Origin: Ruminococcus flavefaciens
Lineage (GTDB): Bacteria > Bacteroidota > Bacteroidia > Bacteroidales > P3
Direction: 5' to 3'
Assembly (NCBI GenBank): GCA_023667315.1
Contig: JAMPAI010000001.1
Location: 72,914-136,913, forward strand
Length of the DNA: 64,000 nucleotides
Shown: piece after piece, positions 11,591 to 33,374 of the stretch
Numbering within the stretch: the stretch's first letter is position 1
Layout: every line of letters starts with the position of its first letter
Translations under genes and position numbers: made by a program
Notes under the pieces: generated by a model
Databases searched by the model: none
What the model saw: the letters and a program-made list of their open reading frames with translations, nothing else
Told to the model about the DNA's origin: nothing

Positions 11591-11675
11591 TACCCCGAGC
11601 GGGACTTGAACCCGCACGAATTCATCATTCACAGGATTTTAAGTCCTGCGTGTCTACCGATTCCACCATCGGGGC
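11591..11675 (-). tRNA. tRNA-Leu (anticodon UAA), long variable arm
   Basis: Reverse complement is GCCCCGATGGTGGAATCGGTAGACACGCAGGACTTAAAATCCTGTGAATGATGAATTCGTGCGGGTTCAAGTCCCGCTCGGGGTA. It folds by hand into a cloverleaf with anticodon loop CT-TAA-AA and a GTTCAAGTC T-loop. No CCA is encoded. Confidence 0.9.
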
Positions 11676-11733: not shown

Positions 11734-11809
11734 TGGAGCGGAAAACGAGGTTCGAACTCGCGACCTCAACCTTGGCAAGGTTGCGCTCTACCAGCTGAGC
11801 TACTTCCGC
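11734..11809 (-). tRNA. tRNA-Gly (anticodon GCC), CCA encoded
   Basis: Reverse complement is GCGGAAGTAGCTCAGCTGGTAGAGCGCAACCTTGCCAAGGTTGAGGTCGCGAGTTCGAACCTCGTTTTCCGCTCCA. Canonical D and T loops. Confidence 0.92.
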
Positions 11810-24487: not shown

Positions 24488-25156
24488 TTATTTCGCGCTG
24501 GCCGAAGTTTTCTTAACCGTGGCTTTTGTCTTGGTGGAACCTGCGGCGGCAGCGGCCTTGGGTTTCGCGGCGGCTTTGGCGGCCGGTTTGGCCGTGCTCT
24601 TGGCGGCTTTTTCGGCGGCGGGCTTGGCGGCGGCCTTAGGTTCGGCTTTCTTGGCCTTGGCAGCCGGTTTGGCGGCGGTCTTGGCCGGCTTCTCTTCGGC
24701 TTCCTTGGCTTCGGCCGCTTCTTCGGCCTCGTGCTGCGCCAGACCCTCTATCTGCGCCTTTTCGCGTTCGGAAAGTTCCTGATCCACCAGGTTGTTGTCG
24801 ATCAAAAGGTTGTACCAGGCCAACACTTTCTTGATATTGCTGTCGTACACGTGTTCGGTGTCGAAATCGGGCACGAACTGTGCGAAGTACTCCTTCAGGT
24901 TCTTGATCTGTGCCGGTTCCTGCGCCTTCTTGCCGTCCAGGGCCTTGTGCATGGCGCGGAAAACGTTGGGCAGGCTCATCTTGCCGTCCTGGGTGTAGAT
25001 GGCTATCTCGGCCAGGGAGCTGACTTTCTCCAGCCCGAAGACGGGCATCCGCTTTTTGTCTTGCAGGCTTTCAACAATAGCCGATACCTTGCTCTGGCTA
25101 ACCAGCCTGTAGAGCGACGGCTTGGTAGGAATCGTAAGGATTTTTTCTAAGTCCAT
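24488..25156 (-). CDS. DUF5606-like protein with a histone H1-like Ala/Lys/Pro-rich C-terminal tail
   Basis: ORF 24488-25273 trimmed to the ATG at 25156 (MDLEKILTIPTKPSLYRLVSQSK...). The DUF5606 assignment is from memory of that family. The tail reads AKPAAKAKKAEPKAAAKPAAEKAAK... Confidence 0.65.
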   Translation of the reverse strand: MDLEKILTIPTKPSLYRLVSQSKVSAIVESLQDKKRMPVFGLEKVSSLAEIAIYTQDGKMSLPNVFRAMHKALDGKKAQEPAQIKNLKEYFAQFVPDFDTEHVYDSNIKKVLAWYNLLIDNNLVDQELSEREKAQIEGLAQHEAEEAAEAKEAEEKPAKTAAKPAAKAKKAEPKAAAKPAAEKAAKSTAKPAAKAAAKPKAAAAAGSTKTKATVKKTSASAK

Positions 25157-25177: not shown

Positions 25178-25185
25178 CAAATTTA
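25178..25185 (-). promoter_or_regulatory. -7 box TAaaTTTG upstream of the DUF5606-like gene
   Basis: Minus strand reads gtTAAATTTGccctc, 21 nt upstream of the ATG at 25156. Confidence 0.5.
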
Positions 25186-25198
25186 ACTCTTTTTTATA

Positions 25199-25320
25199 AA
25201 AACGATTTAGGCGGATGAGATGCAAGACGGAAGCCTCAGGAACGCGCGGGAGCGTACAGAAGTACGTGGCCAAGCGAGCCTAAGGCTTCCAACGCGGCAG
25301 CTCGCCGCCTAATTCGTTTT
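25199..25320. repeat. copy A of a 90-nt GC-rich element enclosed by a 16-bp inverted repeat that includes the deoC stop codon
   Basis: The arms at 25199-25214 and 25305-25320 match 15/16. The 90-nt interior contains the mini-hairpin cgtac-agaa-gtacg. It is homologous by eye to 32208-32297. Confidence 0.75.
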
Positions 25321-26103
25321 GGAGGCGGTGTAGAGCGCGTCGGCCAGGCGGCTGGCGCCGATACGGAAAAGCGAGGGGTTCATCCATTTCTCGCCCAGGA
25401 TCTGATACACCAGCTTGAAGTAGGGGATGGCGCCTTCCACCGAGGAGATGCCGCCGGCGGGCTTGATGCCCACGATACGGCCCTGCGCCGCGTAGCGTTC
25501 AATCACCTTCAGCATTACGTAAAAGGCTTCCGTGGTGGCCGAAACCGAGGTCTTTCCGGTGGAGGTCTTGATGAAGTCGGCGCCGTTGTCGATGGCGATG
25601 CACGAGGCCTTCTCGATATTGTCGGGCGTGTTCAGGTTGCCCGTTTCCAGAATCACCTTCAGGTGCGCCTTGCCGCAGCATTCCTTGATGGCCTTCACCT
25701 CGTCGCCCACGCGTTTGTAGTCGCCTTCCAGGAACGCGCCCTGCGAGATCACCATGTCGATTTCGTCCGCGCCGTCCTTCAGGGTCTGTTCCACCTCGAA
25801 CAGCTTGGTCCTGAGCGGCAGCTGCGAGGCCGGGAAACCGCCCGCCACGCAAGCGGTCTGGATCTTGGTGCCTTCCAGGTTCTTCTTTACCTGCGCGGCA
25901 TAATAAGGATACACGCAGACGGCAGCCGTGCCGTAGTCCTTGGCCTTCTGGCAGAGGTCATCGACCCGTTTTTGGGTGTCGGTGCCGTCGAGTGTGGTGA
26001 GGTCGATAAACGACAGCATCCTGGCGCACATTTCCTTTTCGGAGAACGGCACCGGTTTGGCCAGCAGGGCGGCCACTTCTTTCTGAACGTCTTCTATAGT
26101 CAT
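25309..26103 (-). CDS. deoC: deoxyribose-phosphate aldolase
   Basis: 264 aa. IDLTTLDG, DMVI, and the Schiff-base Lys context FIKTSTGK. Confidence 0.9.
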   Translation of the reverse strand: MTIEDVQKEVAALLAKPVPFSEKEMCARMLSFIDLTTLDGTDTQKRVDDLCQKAKDYGTAAVCVYPYYAAQVKKNLEGTKIQTACVAGGFPASQLPLRTKLFEVEQTLKDGADEIDMVISQGAFLEGDYKRVGDEVKAIKECCGKAHLKVILETGNLNTPDNIEKASCIAIDNGADFIKTSTGKTSVSATTEAFYVMLKVIERYAAQGRIVGIKPAGGISSVEGAIPYFKLVYQILGEKWMNPSLFRIGASRLADALYTASKTN

Positions 26104-30326: not shown

Positions 30327-30369
30327 ACAATGATAATGTTTTATAATTAATTATATATCATTGTTTTTT
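30326..30369 (+). terminator. AT-rich hairpin plus T-run immediately before the ygiQ start
   Basis: aacaatgata (30326-30335) and tatcattgtt (30356-30365) form a perfect 10-bp inverted repeat with a 20-nt loop, followed by tttt. Confidence 0.55.
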
Positions 30370-30370
30370 G

Positions 30371-32203
30371 ATGACGGAACAAGTGACGGAACAGGATATG
30401 AAAACTGAAGTTTTCAATAAGATAGACCCCGACGCCCTGCCCATCGAGGCCTGGCTGCCCGTTTCCAAAAAGGAAATGGAGAAGCGCGGCTGGGAGCAGG
30501 CCGACATCATCCTGATAAGCGGCGACGCGTATGTGGACCATCCCTCGTTCGGCATCGCCGTGATCGGGCGTACCCTGGAGGCCGCCGGCTACAGGGTGGC
30601 CATCCTGCCGCAGCCCAACTGGCGCGACGACCTGCGCGACTTCAGGAAACTGGGCAGGCCGCGGCTGTTCTTCGGCGTTTCGGCGGGCAGCATGGACTCG
30701 ATGGTGAACCACTACACGGCGCGCAAGCGCCTGCGCAGCAACGACGCCTATACCCCCGGCGGGCAGGCCGGTTTTCGCCCCGATTACCCCACCATCGTTT
30801 ATTCAAAGATACTCAAGGAGATATATCCCGACGTGCCGGTGGTTGTCGGCGGCATCGAGGCCTCGATGCGCCGCATCACGCACTACGACTACTGGCAGGA
30901 TAGGCTGCGGCCCTCTTTTCTGGTGGAAAGCGGCGCCGACCTGCTCGTGTACGGCATGGGCGAGAAACCCATCGTGGAGATAGCCCGGCAACTGGAGCGG
31001 AACCCGCGCGCCGAGGCCTGCCGGAACATCCTGCAGGTATCTTACCTGGAGAAAGGCGCGCCGAGGCCTTCGCCGGTGCCCGAAGCCGACCTGGTGCTGG
31101 AGCCGCACGAACGCTGCCTTAAGGACAAGCGTTGCCAGGCCGGGAACTTCGCCGTGGTGGAAACGGCCTCGAACATGATGCGCTGCGGGCGTATCCTGCA
31201 GAAGACCGCTTGGGGCACGGTGGTGGTGAACCCGCCCTTTCCGTTCGAGCCGGGCGGCCACGAGATCGACAAAAGCTTCGACCTGCCGTACACCCGCCTG
31301 CCGCACCCCCGCTACAAGAACCGGGGCGAGATACCGGCCTTCACGATGATCCAGAACTCGATCACCCTGCACCGGGGCTGTTTCGGCGGCTGCTCGTTCT
31401 GCACCATTTCCGCCCATCAGGGCAAGCACGTGCACAGCCGCAGCGAGGAATCGGTACTGAAGGAGATACAACAGCTTGCCCGGATGCCGTATTTTAAGGG
31501 CAATCTGAGCGATTTGGGTGGGCCGAGCGCCAATATGTACGGAATGCACGGAAAAGACCTCGCAAAATGCGCCAGATGCAAGAAGCCGTCCTGTCTCTTT
31601 CCGTCCATCTGCCCGAACCTGAACCCCGACCACAGTACACTGCTCGAATTATACAAAAAGGCGGCATCCCTGCCCGGCGTGCGCCGCGTGTTCATCGGCA
31701 GCGGCGTGCGCTACGACCTGCTGGTGCCCTACCTCGAGACGGGCGGCAGGGGAAGGCCCTCGCAGAACCATGCGCGGGAATACGCCCAATGGCTTATAGA
31801 AAACGGGGTTTCGGGACGCCTGAAGGTGGCGCCCGAACACACCGAGGCGTCGGTGCTGGAAAGGATGCGCAAGATGCCGTTCTCGCAGTTCGAGGAATTC
31901 AAGCGTTTCTTCGACGGGCACTGCCGCAGCCGCCACCTCAACTTCCAGCTGATTCCGTATTTTATCTCCGCCCATCCGGGCTGCACCCAAAAGGATATGG
32001 AACGCCTGCAGGAGAAAACCAGACACCTGGGCTACAAGCTGGAGCAGGTGCAGCTCTTTACGCCCACCCCGATGACGCTCTCCACCGAAACCTACTACAC
32101 GGGACTGGACCCCTACACGCTAAAGCCGGTGTTTACGGAGCGGGATTTTGCCAGACGGGACAGGCAGACCGATTGTTTCTTCTGGTACAAAATTCGGCAA
32201 TAA
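30371..32203 (+). CDS. ygiQ: YgiQ-family radical SAM protein (UPF0313)
   Basis: ORF 30368-32203 (ATG at 30371). ILISGDAYVDHPSFGIAVIGR, MDSMVNHYTARKRLRSNDAYTPGG and the CxxxCxxC motif CFGGCSFC closely parallel E. coli YgiQ. Confidence 0.9.
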   Translation: MTEQVTEQDMKTEVFNKIDPDALPIEAWLPVSKKEMEKRGWEQADIILISGDAYVDHPSFGIAVIGRTLEAAGYRVAILPQPNWRDDLRDFRKLGRPRLFFGVSAGSMDSMVNHYTARKRLRSNDAYTPGGQAGFRPDYPTIVYSKILKEIYPDVPVVVGGIEASMRRITHYDYWQDRLRPSFLVESGADLLVYGMGEKPIVEIARQLERNPRAEACRNILQVSYLEKGAPRPSPVPEADLVLEPHERCLKDKRCQAGNFAVVETASNMMRCGRILQKTAWGTVVVNPPFPFEPGGHEIDKSFDLPYTRLPHPRYKNRGEIPAFTMIQNSITLHRGCFGGCSFCTISAHQGKHVHSRSEESVLKEIQQLARMPYFKGNLSDLGGPSANMYGMHGKDLAKCARCKKPSCLFPSICPNLNPDHSTLLELYKKAASLPGVRRVFIGSGVRYDLLVPYLETGGRGRPSQNHAREYAQWLIENGVSGRLKVAPEHTEASVLERMRKMPFSQFEEFKRFFDGHCRSRHLNFQLIPYFISAHPGCTQKDMERLQEKTRHLGYKLEQVQLFTPTPMTLSTETYYTGLDPYTLKPVFTERDFARRDRQTDCFFWYKIRQ

Positions 32204-32315
32204 AAGGGTGATCTGCTTCCTTGCTTCGGGCTCGCTCTTCGGTCACGTACTGAAGTACGCTCCCTCAGGCTTAGACCTCGCGGCGTTGCATCTCACACCT
32301 TTTATTGCCGAATTT
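32190..32315. repeat. copy B of the 90-nt GC-rich element enclosed by an 18-bp perfect inverted repeat that includes the ygiQ stop codon
   Basis: The arms are aaattcggcaataaaagg (32190-32207) and ccttttattgccgaattt (32298-32315). The 90-nt interior contains cgtac-tgaa-gtacg (32246-32259). Confidence 0.78.
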
Positions 32316-32354
32316 GGCGGTCTGGCGGGTTTTCTGCGAGATGGCTTGTAAAAC

Positions 32355-32383
32355 AAAAGGGCTTGTCTGTGACAAGCCCTTTT
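32355..32383. terminator. bidirectional rho-independent terminator between ygiQ and tdh
   Basis: aaaagggcttgtc-tgt-gacaagccctttt, a perfect 13-bp stem with A/T runs on both sides. Confidence 0.8.
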
Positions 32384-32405
32384 GTAAAAATTGCAGTGCA
32401 AGGTT

Positions 32406-33374
32406 TTAGAACTTGCCGGCCTTGTATTTTTCGCCCACCAGCTGGAGCATTTCCTTGGTCATGGTGTCCAGGTCGTAGGCCGGTTTCCAATCCCATTCAG
32501 CGCGGGCGCAGCTGTCGTCGATCGAATTGGGCCACGAGTCGGCGATGGCCTGGCGGAAGTCGGGCTTGTACACGATTTCCAGGTTCGGCATGTATTTCTT
32601 TACCGATTCGTACATGTCCTTGGGCGTTACGCTGAAGGCGGCGATGTTGTAACCCGTGCTGTGCTTGAGGCGGCTCTTTTCGGCATGGAAAAGGTCGATG
32701 GTGGCCTTCAAGCAGTCGGGCATGTACATCATGGGAAGCATGGAGTTCTCGGACAGGAAGCATTCGAACTTGCCGTACTTGATGGCGTCGTAGTAAATCT
32801 GCACCGCGTAGTCGGTGGTGCCGCCGCCGGGCAGGGTCTCGCTCGAGATGATGCCGGGGTAGCGCACGCCGCGGATATCCATGCCGAACTTGTCGATGTA
32901 GTACTGACCTAAGAGTTCGCACGAAACCTTGGTGATGCCGTACATGGTGGAAGGTTGCAGCACGGTGTCCTGCGGGGTCATGTCGGCGGGGGTGGTGGGG
33001 CCGAAGGCGGCCATGGAGCTGGGGGCGAAGATACGCTTGATGCCCTTTTCCTTGGCCACGTTATATACGTTGATGGTGCCGCCCATGTTGATGTTCCAGG
33101 CCAGCATGGGGTTCTTCTCGCCCACGGCCGACAGGATGGCGGCCAGGTGGAAGATGGCGTCGATCTGGTACTTGTCGATGAGTTCTGCCAAACGCTTGCC
33201 GTCCAAAACATCCAGTTGTTCGATAGGACCGCCGTTCTTGATCTTGTCGGTTACCCGGTTCAAGTCCAAGTCGGTGGCAATTACATTTTCACCTCCGTAA
33301 ATCTTACGCAAGGCACAGGTAAGTTCCGAGCCGATCTGCCCGAAAGAACCCGTTAACAGAATACGCTTTATCAT
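32406..33374 (-). CDS. tdh: L-threonine 3-dehydrogenase, SDR/UDP-glucose 4-epimerase-like type
   Basis: 322 aa. ILLTGSFGQIGSEL Rossmann motif, YGITKVSCE (YxxxK) and GGGTTDYAV, typical of short-chain type TDH. Confidence 0.85.
   Translation of the reverse strand: MIKRILLTGSFGQIGSELTCALRKIYGGENVIATDLDLNRVTDKIKNGGPIEQLDVLDGKRLAELIDKYQIDAIFHLAAILSAVGEKNPMLAWNINMGGTINVYNVAKEKGIKRIFAPSSMAAFGPTTPADMTPQDTVLQPSTMYGITKVSCELLGQYYIDKFGMDIRGVRYPGIISSETLPGGGTTDYAVQIYYDAIKYGKFECFLSENSMLPMMYMPDCLKATIDLFHAEKSRLKHSTGYNIAAFSVTPKDMYESVKKYMPNLEIVYKPDFRQAIADSWPNSIDDSCARAEWDWKPAYDLDTMTKEMLQLVGEKYKAGKF

Follow-up and report, generated by a model that had tools for sequence, protein, structure and literature searches.

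The end of the deoC gene raises the question of how the last codons of a reading frame can come to lie inside a long hairpin. The gene codes for deoxyribose-phosphate aldolase (DeoC) and is found on contig JAMPAI010000001.1 of assembly GCA_023667315.1, in a stretch of 64 kb (G+C = 56%) which was analyzed as a whole and is called the window in the following. The hairpin, copy A, is 122 nt long; a second one, copy B, lies 7 kb away at the end of a radical-SAM gene. We consider it likely that A and B represent two Bacteroidales subfamilies of a non-autonomous hairpin repeat which resembles the MITEs (miniature transposable elements with inverted repeats) and belongs to one superfamily with ERIC (the repetitive intergenic consensus of enterobacteria, also called IRU). 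The Bacteroidales element is a new variant of the ERIC kind and no Rfam model covers it.

The hairpin, its copies and the ERIC family

The original prediction for copy A postulated two arms that are inverted repeats at 15 of 16 positions, 90 nt between them containing a central mini-hairpin and an inner near-palindrome, and the TAG stop of deoC inside the right arm. All of these parts are present (Table 1): the arms are complementary at 15/16 positions and enclose exactly 90 nt, and the open reading frame (ORF) of deoC ends where it was said to end. In deoC sense copy A folds into a single long hairpin followed by UUUUUAUAAAAAA. The folding energy is -66.4 kcal/mol compared to -38.6 +/- 3.6 kcal/mol for shuffles (z = -7.8), and the fold reproduces the predicted ~122-nt hairpin ending in a U-run, which arises from the distal arm plus the A-run at 25198-25202.

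Copy B had also been predicted, with an interior of equal length and an equal orientation relative to its host gene. This is confirmed by the alignment of A(+) to B(-), which has a local score of 38 compared to 15.7 +/- 2.3 (maximum 26) in 500 dinucleotide shuffles, well above the shuffled expectation. Since it is the plus strand of A which matches the minus strand of B, the two copies have the same orientation relative to both host genes. The folding energy of copy B is -56.2 kcal/mol (z = -3.9). When the covariance model R1 was run over the 64-kb window with filters off, copies A and B were the only ones found, the next match scoring 11 bits.

Both copies are short, non-coding and bounded by terminal inverted repeats, and the element is dispersed and multicopy with filled as well as empty orthologous sites, all of which are properties of a MITE. 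With generic MITEs (Correia/NEMIS, RUP, RPE) it has in common that it is small, non-coding and multicopy with inverted termini, that its presence is polymorphic, and that it is located at gene ends with occasional fusion in frame. It differs from them in an interior whose conservation exceeds that of the termini, and this across phyla, and in having neither a demonstrated target duplication nor a known parent insertion sequence (IS).

Relatives were collected by scanning one genome per species for the exact 17-nt core pattern GGGAGCGTACNNNNGTACGTG, which gave at least 118 loci. Nearly all of the core matches listed are found at the apex of hairpins of ~120-130 nt, and ~125-nt hairpins with this core occur in Bacteroidota, Myxococcota, Verrucomicrobiota, Firmicutes and several proteobacterial groups. 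Blocks outside the search pattern are conserved as well (GAGATGC, AAGGC, CAACGC and GCAGATC, beside the core GGGAGCGTAC-N4-GTACGTGACCGA), and in copies which were found independently of the core pattern the apical stem has further compensatory changes with the tandem G.A retained. From the outside inwards a unit of ~122-127 nt is thus made up of arms that are taxon-specific, the GAGATGC/GCAGATC stem with its tandem G.A, the purine-rich AAGGC/AACGC loop, a variable stem which evolves fast, and the apical hairpin.

The arms of Bacteroidales subfamily 1, AAAAA(n)CGTTTTGGAYGG ... CCRTCCAAAACG(n)TTTTT, recur at unrelated loci in other genomes. The arm type is AAAAA-CG-TTTTGGAYGG / CCRTCCAAAA-CG-TTTTT, with TTTAGG variants, to which copy A belongs, at the loci L034, L039 and L124. 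The consensus fold of 13 subfamily-1 copies is a hairpin of 41 pairs, 25 of which show compensatory changes, the outer arms included. RNAalifold recovered only the 8-bp apical hairpin from MAFFT alignments of all phyla, because the variable stems were misaligned. L035, L079, L074, L065 and copy B form a second subfamily; here the arms are AT-rich and end in AAGG(G), and the interior is GATGCAACGCCGC...GGCAAGGAAGCAGA. Copies within one genome have arms in common in Porphyromonas somerae, a Polyangia metagenome-assembled genome (MAG), a Muribaculaceae MAG and Bacteroides sp. NALB_7963_6, and the first three of these carry many copies each.

Several variants of the arrangement were seen. Falsiporphyromonas endometrii has seven head-to-tail copies (L101 261-1221, period ~136 nt) in an array that stops 66 nt from the stop codon of a class-V aminotransferase gene, and shorter tandems are present at L039, L121, L065, L033 and L120. 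An extra hairpin of ~40-60 nt is found in one arm of copies from P. somerae (L026, L043, L100, L106) and from the Polyangia MAG (L023, L040, L046, L091, L103); these can be likened to the long ERIC variants with internal insertions. In IMG/VR the sole matches on viral contigs are a short variant of ~95 nt on two near-identical contigs (L166 11030-11150, L167 4445-4565), so there is no evidence of carriage by phages.

The enterobacterial matches of the scan are classical ERIC/IRU elements. One of them, L016, has matches over its full 127 nt in each of the 5,426 complete E. coli genomes, the median being 11 places per genome, and the E. coli copy between yeiL and psuT contains the ERIC2 primer exactly and the ERIC1R primer with one mismatch. 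A model built from 30 Bacteroidota copies only, R2, matches this yeiL-psuT ERIC over the full length with 24.5 bits (E = 7e-5, a rough value as the model was short-calibrated), and it also matches ERICs without the search pattern at 25-29 bits. A metagenome scan with the arm pattern gave 38 matches, 36 of them due to chance and two true copies. These two, found by their Bacteroidales arm, have the E. coli-type core GGGAGCTTAC/GTAAGTGAC, which differs from the Bacteroidales core by a compensatory change from G-C to U-A.

With ERIC (IRU, RU-1) the element shares the following features. Both are imperfect palindromes of ~125 nt which form a single long stem-loop with purine-purine mismatches, an apical core GGGAGC[G/T]TAC-N4-GTA[C/A]GTGAC, an AAGGC/AACGC internal loop and a stem of the GCA..TGCAAC type. 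Both are dispersed, multicopy, extragenic and adjacent to genes, occur in truncated copies and in variants with internal insertions, and may fuse to the 3' end of a gene and alter the C-terminus, a remodelling which has been described for ERIC (PMC2759123). The differences concern first of all the host, here a Bacteroidales MAG and not a member of Enterobacteriaceae or Vibrionaceae. Further, the terminal inverted repeats are unrelated to those of ERIC and do not consistently end in TA or show a TA duplication, GA/ACCGA surrounds the core in place of the CCCC/GGGG clamp, the flanks at the primer sites, GAATCCCC/GGGGTGAGCG, are not shared by the Bacteroidales copies, and there is a strict polarity relative to stop codons which is opposite to that of the sampled enterobacterial copies.

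The reviews consulted place ERIC in Enterobacteriaceae and Vibrionaceae only. A literature search for the core sequence or for "ERIC-like" repeats beyond enterobacteria returned nothing relevant; a description in papers beyond those searched is possible. Rfam gave nothing relevant either when the window was searched with gathering thresholds and the two loci with E <= 10, and the best sub-threshold match there, RtT with 17.9 bits on copy B, did not recur on other copies. The original prediction, which recognised no named repeat family, agrees with the finding that no Rfam family reaches its gathering threshold.

The Rfam family V_AS5, an antisense RNA of Vibrio cholerae, aligns full length to an enterobacterial ERIC (L016 135-258) on the GGGAGC strand with 38.6 bits, the gathering score being 96. 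From this alignment V_AS5 RNA may be a transcribed ERIC copy.

Strand asymmetry and polarity at stop codons

The two strands of the element are not equivalent. The GGGAGC strand is 59% purine, and among the matches listed it has a positive GC skew in 119 of 127 copies; in 120 of the 127 its fold is more stable than that of the complement, with a mean difference of 11 kcal/mol. The asymmetry resides in the conserved motifs, that is the tandem G.A of GAGAUGC/GCAGAUC and of GGGAGC/GUGACC, one G.U pair and the purine loop. No strand-specific G.U signal is present in the variable stems (296 versus 311 pairs), and so neither RNA nor folded DNA is singled out as the form that is read.

Long ORFs were called around 131 pattern matches and each adjacent ORF was rechecked with Pfam, because the ORF caller had made at least one shadow ORF (at L096). 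Among the matches listed, 38 Pfam-verified genes end on the 3' side of the GGGAGC strand, 35-90 nt from the centre of the core, their stops being about 0-25 nt away from the element's 3' side. The distance from stop to core centre peaks sharply at 60-69 nt, which places the stop 0-8 nt from the arm or within it. Host genes include those for PPDK, EngA, ribosomal protein S1, MutS, IMPDH, PurH, ribonucleotide reductase, ArgRS, PolA and RRF, and the two of the window. Four more cases on the 3' side have no Pfam match and one, L096, is an artefact of the ORF caller. On the 5' side only four verified stops were found, three in Enterobacterales and one in a convergent pair with stops on both sides. 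Outside Enterobacterales the purine-rich strand of the matches listed is antisense to the gene in 37 cases versus 1; the location at gene 3' ends in one orientation, which the original prediction had raised as a point to be recorded, is the rule there. The order in the mRNA of the upstream gene is stop, arm, GAUCUGCnGCGUUG, ..., GGUCACGUAC-N4-GUACGCUCCC, ..., GCCUUGCAUCUCA, arm, and the polarity holds in Bacteroidota, Myxococcota, Verrucomicrobiota/Lentisphaerota and several proteobacterial groups. Enterobacterial copies lean the opposite way, with 7 in sense orientation versus 1 when 5'-side stops and 3'-side starts are counted together; the stop of E. coli yeiL, for example, is 16 nt from the 5' side of its ERIC.

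Copies in other surroundings should also be mentioned. At L096 (2035-2141) a thiamine pyrophosphate (TPP) riboswitch and then a thiE-like gene follow directly downstream of a subfamily-1 copy with GGGAGC in sense. Stable-RNA operons of Lysinibacillus, Sporosarcina, Psychrobacillus, a Coriobacteriales MAG, Marinobacter and other gammaproteobacteria carry the element with GGGAGC in sense, often in tandem, 5-15 nt upstream of a tRNA or of the 5' end of 16S, a polarity opposite to that at protein genes.

Two causes of the polarity were considered and rejected. The direction of replication cannot be the cause since copies A and B, 7 kb apart, have opposite absolute orientations. Early stops supplied by the element are not the cause either, as the purine-rich strand contains more stops than the strand which the host genes read. 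The terminal repeats are symmetric, and therefore the choice of target alone cannot set the polarity.

A role in mRNA could account for it. The element would be co-transcribed as the first part of the 3' untranslated region (UTR), where the pyrimidine-rich strand is predicted to form a long imperfect hairpin. For ERIC, co-transcription and orientation-dependent destabilisation of the upstream mRNA have been described, and in Yersinia the upstream mRNA is reported to be destabilised once an RNase E site within a stop-proximal element has been made accessible by ribosomes (PMC2229807, PMC3184786). Orientation-dependent effects on upstream mRNA like those of the Yersinia ERICs may select the observed polarity, and selection of this kind would be the most economical explanation for it; an integration mechanism coupled to the gene end is a possible source as well.

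The hairpin of copy A, with its A-run and U-run, may in addition terminate transcription or stop 3'-exonucleases and thereby insulate deoC from the next promoter. Its A-run/hairpin/U-run layout is 13 nt upstream of the promoter-like box TAAATTTG, which is present on the minus strand next to copy A where it had been predicted, and which we take to be a Bacteroidetes-type -7 box. Copy A and Bacteroidales subfamily 1 share with SPRITE and other terminator-like repeats the A-run/hairpin/T-run of bidirectional intrinsic terminators and the location directly after genes; they differ from them in a hairpin far longer than the canonical one, and other subfamilies, copy B included, have no T-run. In deoC sense copy A ends in UUUUU, copy B in UUU only. 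As copy B lacks a proper U-run and has a separate hairpin behind it (32353-32385), termination is not the general function of the element. That short hairpin, flanked by A-runs and located between copy B and a convergent gene, looks like the actual bidirectional terminator of the gene pair, though the consensus scan did not flag it.

Mobilisation would take place in trans, by an enzyme that probably recognises the folded strand-asymmetric core and not the variable termini. The least improbable alternative is that the functional form is the GGGAGC strand itself, either as RNA (a small RNA, antisense or processed) or as single-stranded DNA which folds and is recognised by a recombinase of the HUH/Y1 or another structure-specific type, as in REPIN/RAYT, and that the polarity comes from the insertion mechanism and not from selection on mRNA. 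The better fold of this strand (in 120 of the 127 copies listed, mean difference -11 kcal/mol) would be explained, and all conserved non-Watson-Crick motifs are on it. The sense copies 5-15 nt upstream of tRNAs and 16S in Lysinibacillus, Sporosarcina, Psychrobacillus and Marinobacter fit, a core more conserved than the termini is unusual for inverted repeats bound by a transposase, and V_AS5, an antisense RNA which was detected by experiment in Vibrio, is a half match to ERIC on the GGGAGC strand. However, that match is far under the threshold, the G.U pairs outside the core are equal on both strands, the enterobacterial copies have the opposite polarity, the core has no GTAG or CGTC head, and no RAYT/HUH/Y1 gene was found, although none was sought. 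On balance we regard this alternative as unlikely. REP and REPIN sequences are, like the element, extragenic repeats which form hairpins, sit at gene 3' ends and are strand-asymmetric, REPIN doublets being of similar length, and in the known systems they are recognised as a folded single strand. The element differs from them in having, in the conserved blocks of the alignments A3, A6 and A7, no REP unit of 20-40 nt with a GTAG/CGTC head, and in being one long hairpin and not two inverted REPs. A resemblance to the signal recognition particle (SRP, 4.5S) RNA was dropped, as Rfam gave no support and the order of the arms differs.

A more far-reaching reading is that ERIC is the enterobacterial branch of a pan-bacterial family of strand-asymmetric hairpins in which the cell or the mobilising enzyme reads the folded core rather than the termini, and which in most phyla are inserted, or kept only, at stop codons, antisense to the gene, and lie in sense upstream of tRNAs and 16S in stable-RNA operons. 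We put this forward tentatively, as a possibility that is open to considerable doubt. If true, it would mean either a coupling of integration to the point where translation or transcription ends (single-stranded DNA past the stop being one way) or a conserved RNA-processing function of the element across phyla.

Insertion at the ends of two genes

The DeoC protein of the window is 100% identical to MCM1530727.1/MCM1554199.1, which are labelled MAG "Bacteroides sp.", and its named homologues are from Bacteroidales MAGs. In every case where the element is missing DeoC has 262 aa and ends ...ASK or ...ASR; at copy A the end is changed from ...ASK-stop to ...ASKTN-stop. The radical-SAM orthologues terminate FWYKR-stop, FWYKKF-stop or FWYKRG-stop, and at copy B ...FWYKR-stop is changed to ...FWYKIRQ-stop. 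Both insertions are immediately 3' of an AAA lysine codon.

The sister genome GCA_023663425.1 (locus L124) has a DeoC which is 97% identical as protein and 95.5% as DNA. Its deoC site is filled, with the same ...ASKTN-stop end and arms that match those of the window at 30/32 positions, and homology with the window stops exactly past the distal ...CGTTTT, which fixes the boundary of copy A at 25199. At site B the sister genome has the same junction (FWYKIRK-stop), and only the gene-proximal half of the element is left, cut at the apical loop (L124 3310-3395, minus); this recalls the palindrome-induced deletions described for ERIC. Both sites are empty in L125-L127 (DeoC 93-94% identical) and in L001-L003 (89-92%), where the genes end ...TCC AGA TAA cctatccgc ATG (deoC in L125-L127) and ...TGG TAT AAA CGA TAG tttt (radical-SAM). 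No hairpin was present at the empty orthologous sites of L125-L127 and L001-L003, and the family models found no copy in these loci. The comparison shows that the whole unit, arms included, was inserted at the ends of deoC and the radical-SAM gene in the common ancestor with GCA_023663425.1, and that each insertion displaced the original stop and added 2-3 residues and a new stop.

The two copies at deoC have diverged more than the gene beside them. Copy A of the window and of L124 are 79% identical overall and 74% in the interior, and the inner stem of the L124 copy is largely different yet self-complementary. The divergent interior next to a gene that is 95.5% identical suggests gene conversion between copies or hairpin-templated repair. 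It should be noted that the distal end of copy A is the exact point at which the window and L124 cease to share gene order (L124 8784-8905 and downstream). Beyond the break L124 has unrelated DNA and a series of genes for proteins of ~190 aa, and the window has the DUF5606/DUF6852 gene; in relatives without the element deoC is followed after 9 nt by a Ham1-like gene.

Two explanations had been considered in the original prediction. The first was a small non-autonomous element landing in the loop of a terminator hairpin, and most of it stands: the element is small, repeated and inserted, and it overlaps the stop at gene 3' ends in one orientation. The pre-existing host hairpin does not stand, as the empty sites are bare. 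The second explanation, a closing stem rebuilt from the 3' end of each host gene, fails because the same arm types recur at unrelated loci and because the arm brought codons with it. Judged from the sequences compared, the arms are the element's own terminal inverted repeats and not host DNA, for three reasons: they recur at unrelated loci, homology with L124 ends at the arm, and the empty sites are free of hairpins.

It may still be asked whether a 90-nt core inserts into the loops of pre-existing host hairpins which overlap stop codons, so that the arms would be host DNA. The arms do differ between A and B and between genomes with complementarity kept, and each subfamily could have arisen once in this way. 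There is also a mini-palindrome, AAATTC-TGA-GAATTT, at the radical-SAM stop of the 90% identical relative L001 (1335-1365, minus), which equals the outermost 6 nt of both copy B arms; the footprint of a deletion, a preferred target and chance are all conceivable here. For copy A this explanation is largely refuted, as the empty sites of the closest relatives have no hairpin. The arm types recur not only at unrelated loci but also within P. somerae, the Polyangia MAG and Bacteroides sp. NALB, and the residues encoded by the arm are missing from every orthologue without the element. The arm supplied both these residues and the stop and was therefore not supplied by the host. We find host-derived arms very improbable.

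A module of the 3' UTR or terminator, acting in cis as RNA, inherited vertically and not mobile, would account for the position after the stop and the polarity conserved across phyla, for the stable hairpin and for the U-run of copy A. It is at variance with the presence and absence of the element among relatives with DeoC 93-97% identical, with host genes that are mutually unrelated and have remodelled C-termini, and with the tandem arrays, the truncated copies and the lack of U-runs in most subfamilies, and we give it hardly any credence. A recombination site of the integron attC or another site-specific type can in practice be dismissed: the imperfect hairpin has the length of Vibrio VCR/attC-like sites and contains CAAC motifs, but there are no paired RYYYAAC/GTTRRRY boxes at its base, which is an A-run/T-run, CAACGC faces AAGGC unpaired, and the copies are dispersed after housekeeping genes with no cassette array or integrase context.

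Some observations weigh against our reading of A and B as subfamilies of an ERIC-related mobile repeat. Most copies were ascertained with the exact 17-nt core, which inflates the apparent conservation of the core, and the E-values of short-calibrated models are rough. TA is found at only about half of the Bacteroidales ends with no consistent TA duplication, and at A and B there is no clear target-site duplication, the junctions being ambiguous through the A-runs. No parent IS or transposase was identified around the copies in loci of 8 kb, in which no transposase search was made. The mini-palindrome of L001 is a hint in favour of the pre-existing hairpin. Finally, a consensus scan for terminators and promoters flags neither A nor B, and the missing U-run of copy B and the separate hairpin after it belong on this side too.

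Features of the window and meaning of the family

The coordinates are collected in Table 1. The two tRNA genes found by Rfam in the window are unrelated to the element.

Table 1. Positions of the two copies, their parts and neighbours in the window, and of copies in stable-RNA operons
Feature	Position	Strand	Sequence or pairing	Remarks
Copy A, complete element	25199-25320	GGGAGC (purine-rich) strand is +, antisense to deoC		122 nt; sequence, fold, model R1 74.9 bits
Copy A outer arm, deoC-distal	25199-25214	+	aaaacgatttaggcgg	terminal inverted repeat; arm type also in L034, L039, L124
Copy A interior	25215-25304			90 nt
Conserved TGAGATGC	25216-25223	+	pairs with GCAGCTC 25297-25303 via tandem G.A mismatch	block in alignments A3, A6, A7
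Purine-rich internal loop, 5' half	25224-25228	+	AAGAC, opposite AACGCG 25291-25296	family consensus AAGGC
Variable inner stem, 5' side	25229-25240	+	ggaagcctcagg, partner 25279-25290	fold
Apical core	25248-25268	+	GGGAGCGTAC-AGAA-GTACGTG	stem 5-6 bp, G.U pair, adjacent tandem G.A
Central mini-hairpin of copy A	25253-25266		cgtac-agaa-gtacg	
Variable inner stem, 3' side	25279-25290	+	cctaaggcttcc	fold
AACGCG loop half, then GCAGCTC	25291-25303	+	family consensus CAACGCnGCAGATC	alignments A3, A6, A7
Copy A outer arm, deoC-proximal	25305-25320	+	ccgcctaattcgtttt	minus strand AAA ACG AAT TAG: last Lys codon, Thr, Asn, stop
deoC, deoxyribose-phosphate aldolase	25309-26103	minus	TAG stop 25309-25311	264 aa; last two residues and stop derive from copy A
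Promoter-like box	25178-25185	minus	TAAATTTG	outside element; precedes DUF5606/DUF6852 gene 24488-25156 (Pfam)
Radical-SAM gene (Radical_SAM_N/DUF3362 type)	30368-32203	+	TAA stop 32201-32203	terminal IRQ and TAA inside copy B left arm; Pfam on orthologues
Copy B, complete element	32189-32315	GGGAGC strand is minus, antisense to upstream radical-SAM gene		127 nt; model R1 77.2 bits
Copy B arms	32190-32207 and 32298-32315			interior 90 nt
Copy B core	32244-32264	minus	GGGAGCGTAC-TTCA-GTACGTG	
Short hairpin after copy B	32353-32385		acaaaagggcttgtc-tgt-gacaagcccttttgt	A-run flanked
Convergent gene	32406-33374	minus		
Two tRNA genes	11591-11675 and 11737-11809	minus		Rfam
Stable-RNA copies (other loci)	L011 11-231; L028 706-940; L030 75-199; L117 100-224; L008 2308-2578; L042 6942-7066; L088 4030-4129; L118 35-134			

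For annotation the element accounts for short lineage-specific C-terminal extensions such as those of DeoC and the radical-SAM protein, and it is a marker of breaks in gene order. Masking or modelling it is advisable in Bacteroidales MAGs.

ERIC repeats have been used in strain typing for 35 years, and to our knowledge their origin, mobilisation and function have not been established. If relatives having this asymmetric core do exist in Bacteroidota, Myxococcota, Verrucomicrobiota, Firmicutes and other groups, comparative work becomes possible, which could find genes that covary with copy number and would be candidates for the mobilising enzyme, the strand that is read and the cause of the polarity at stop codons. 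The distribution across phyla and the rule of stop-codon polarity are the parts worth following up.

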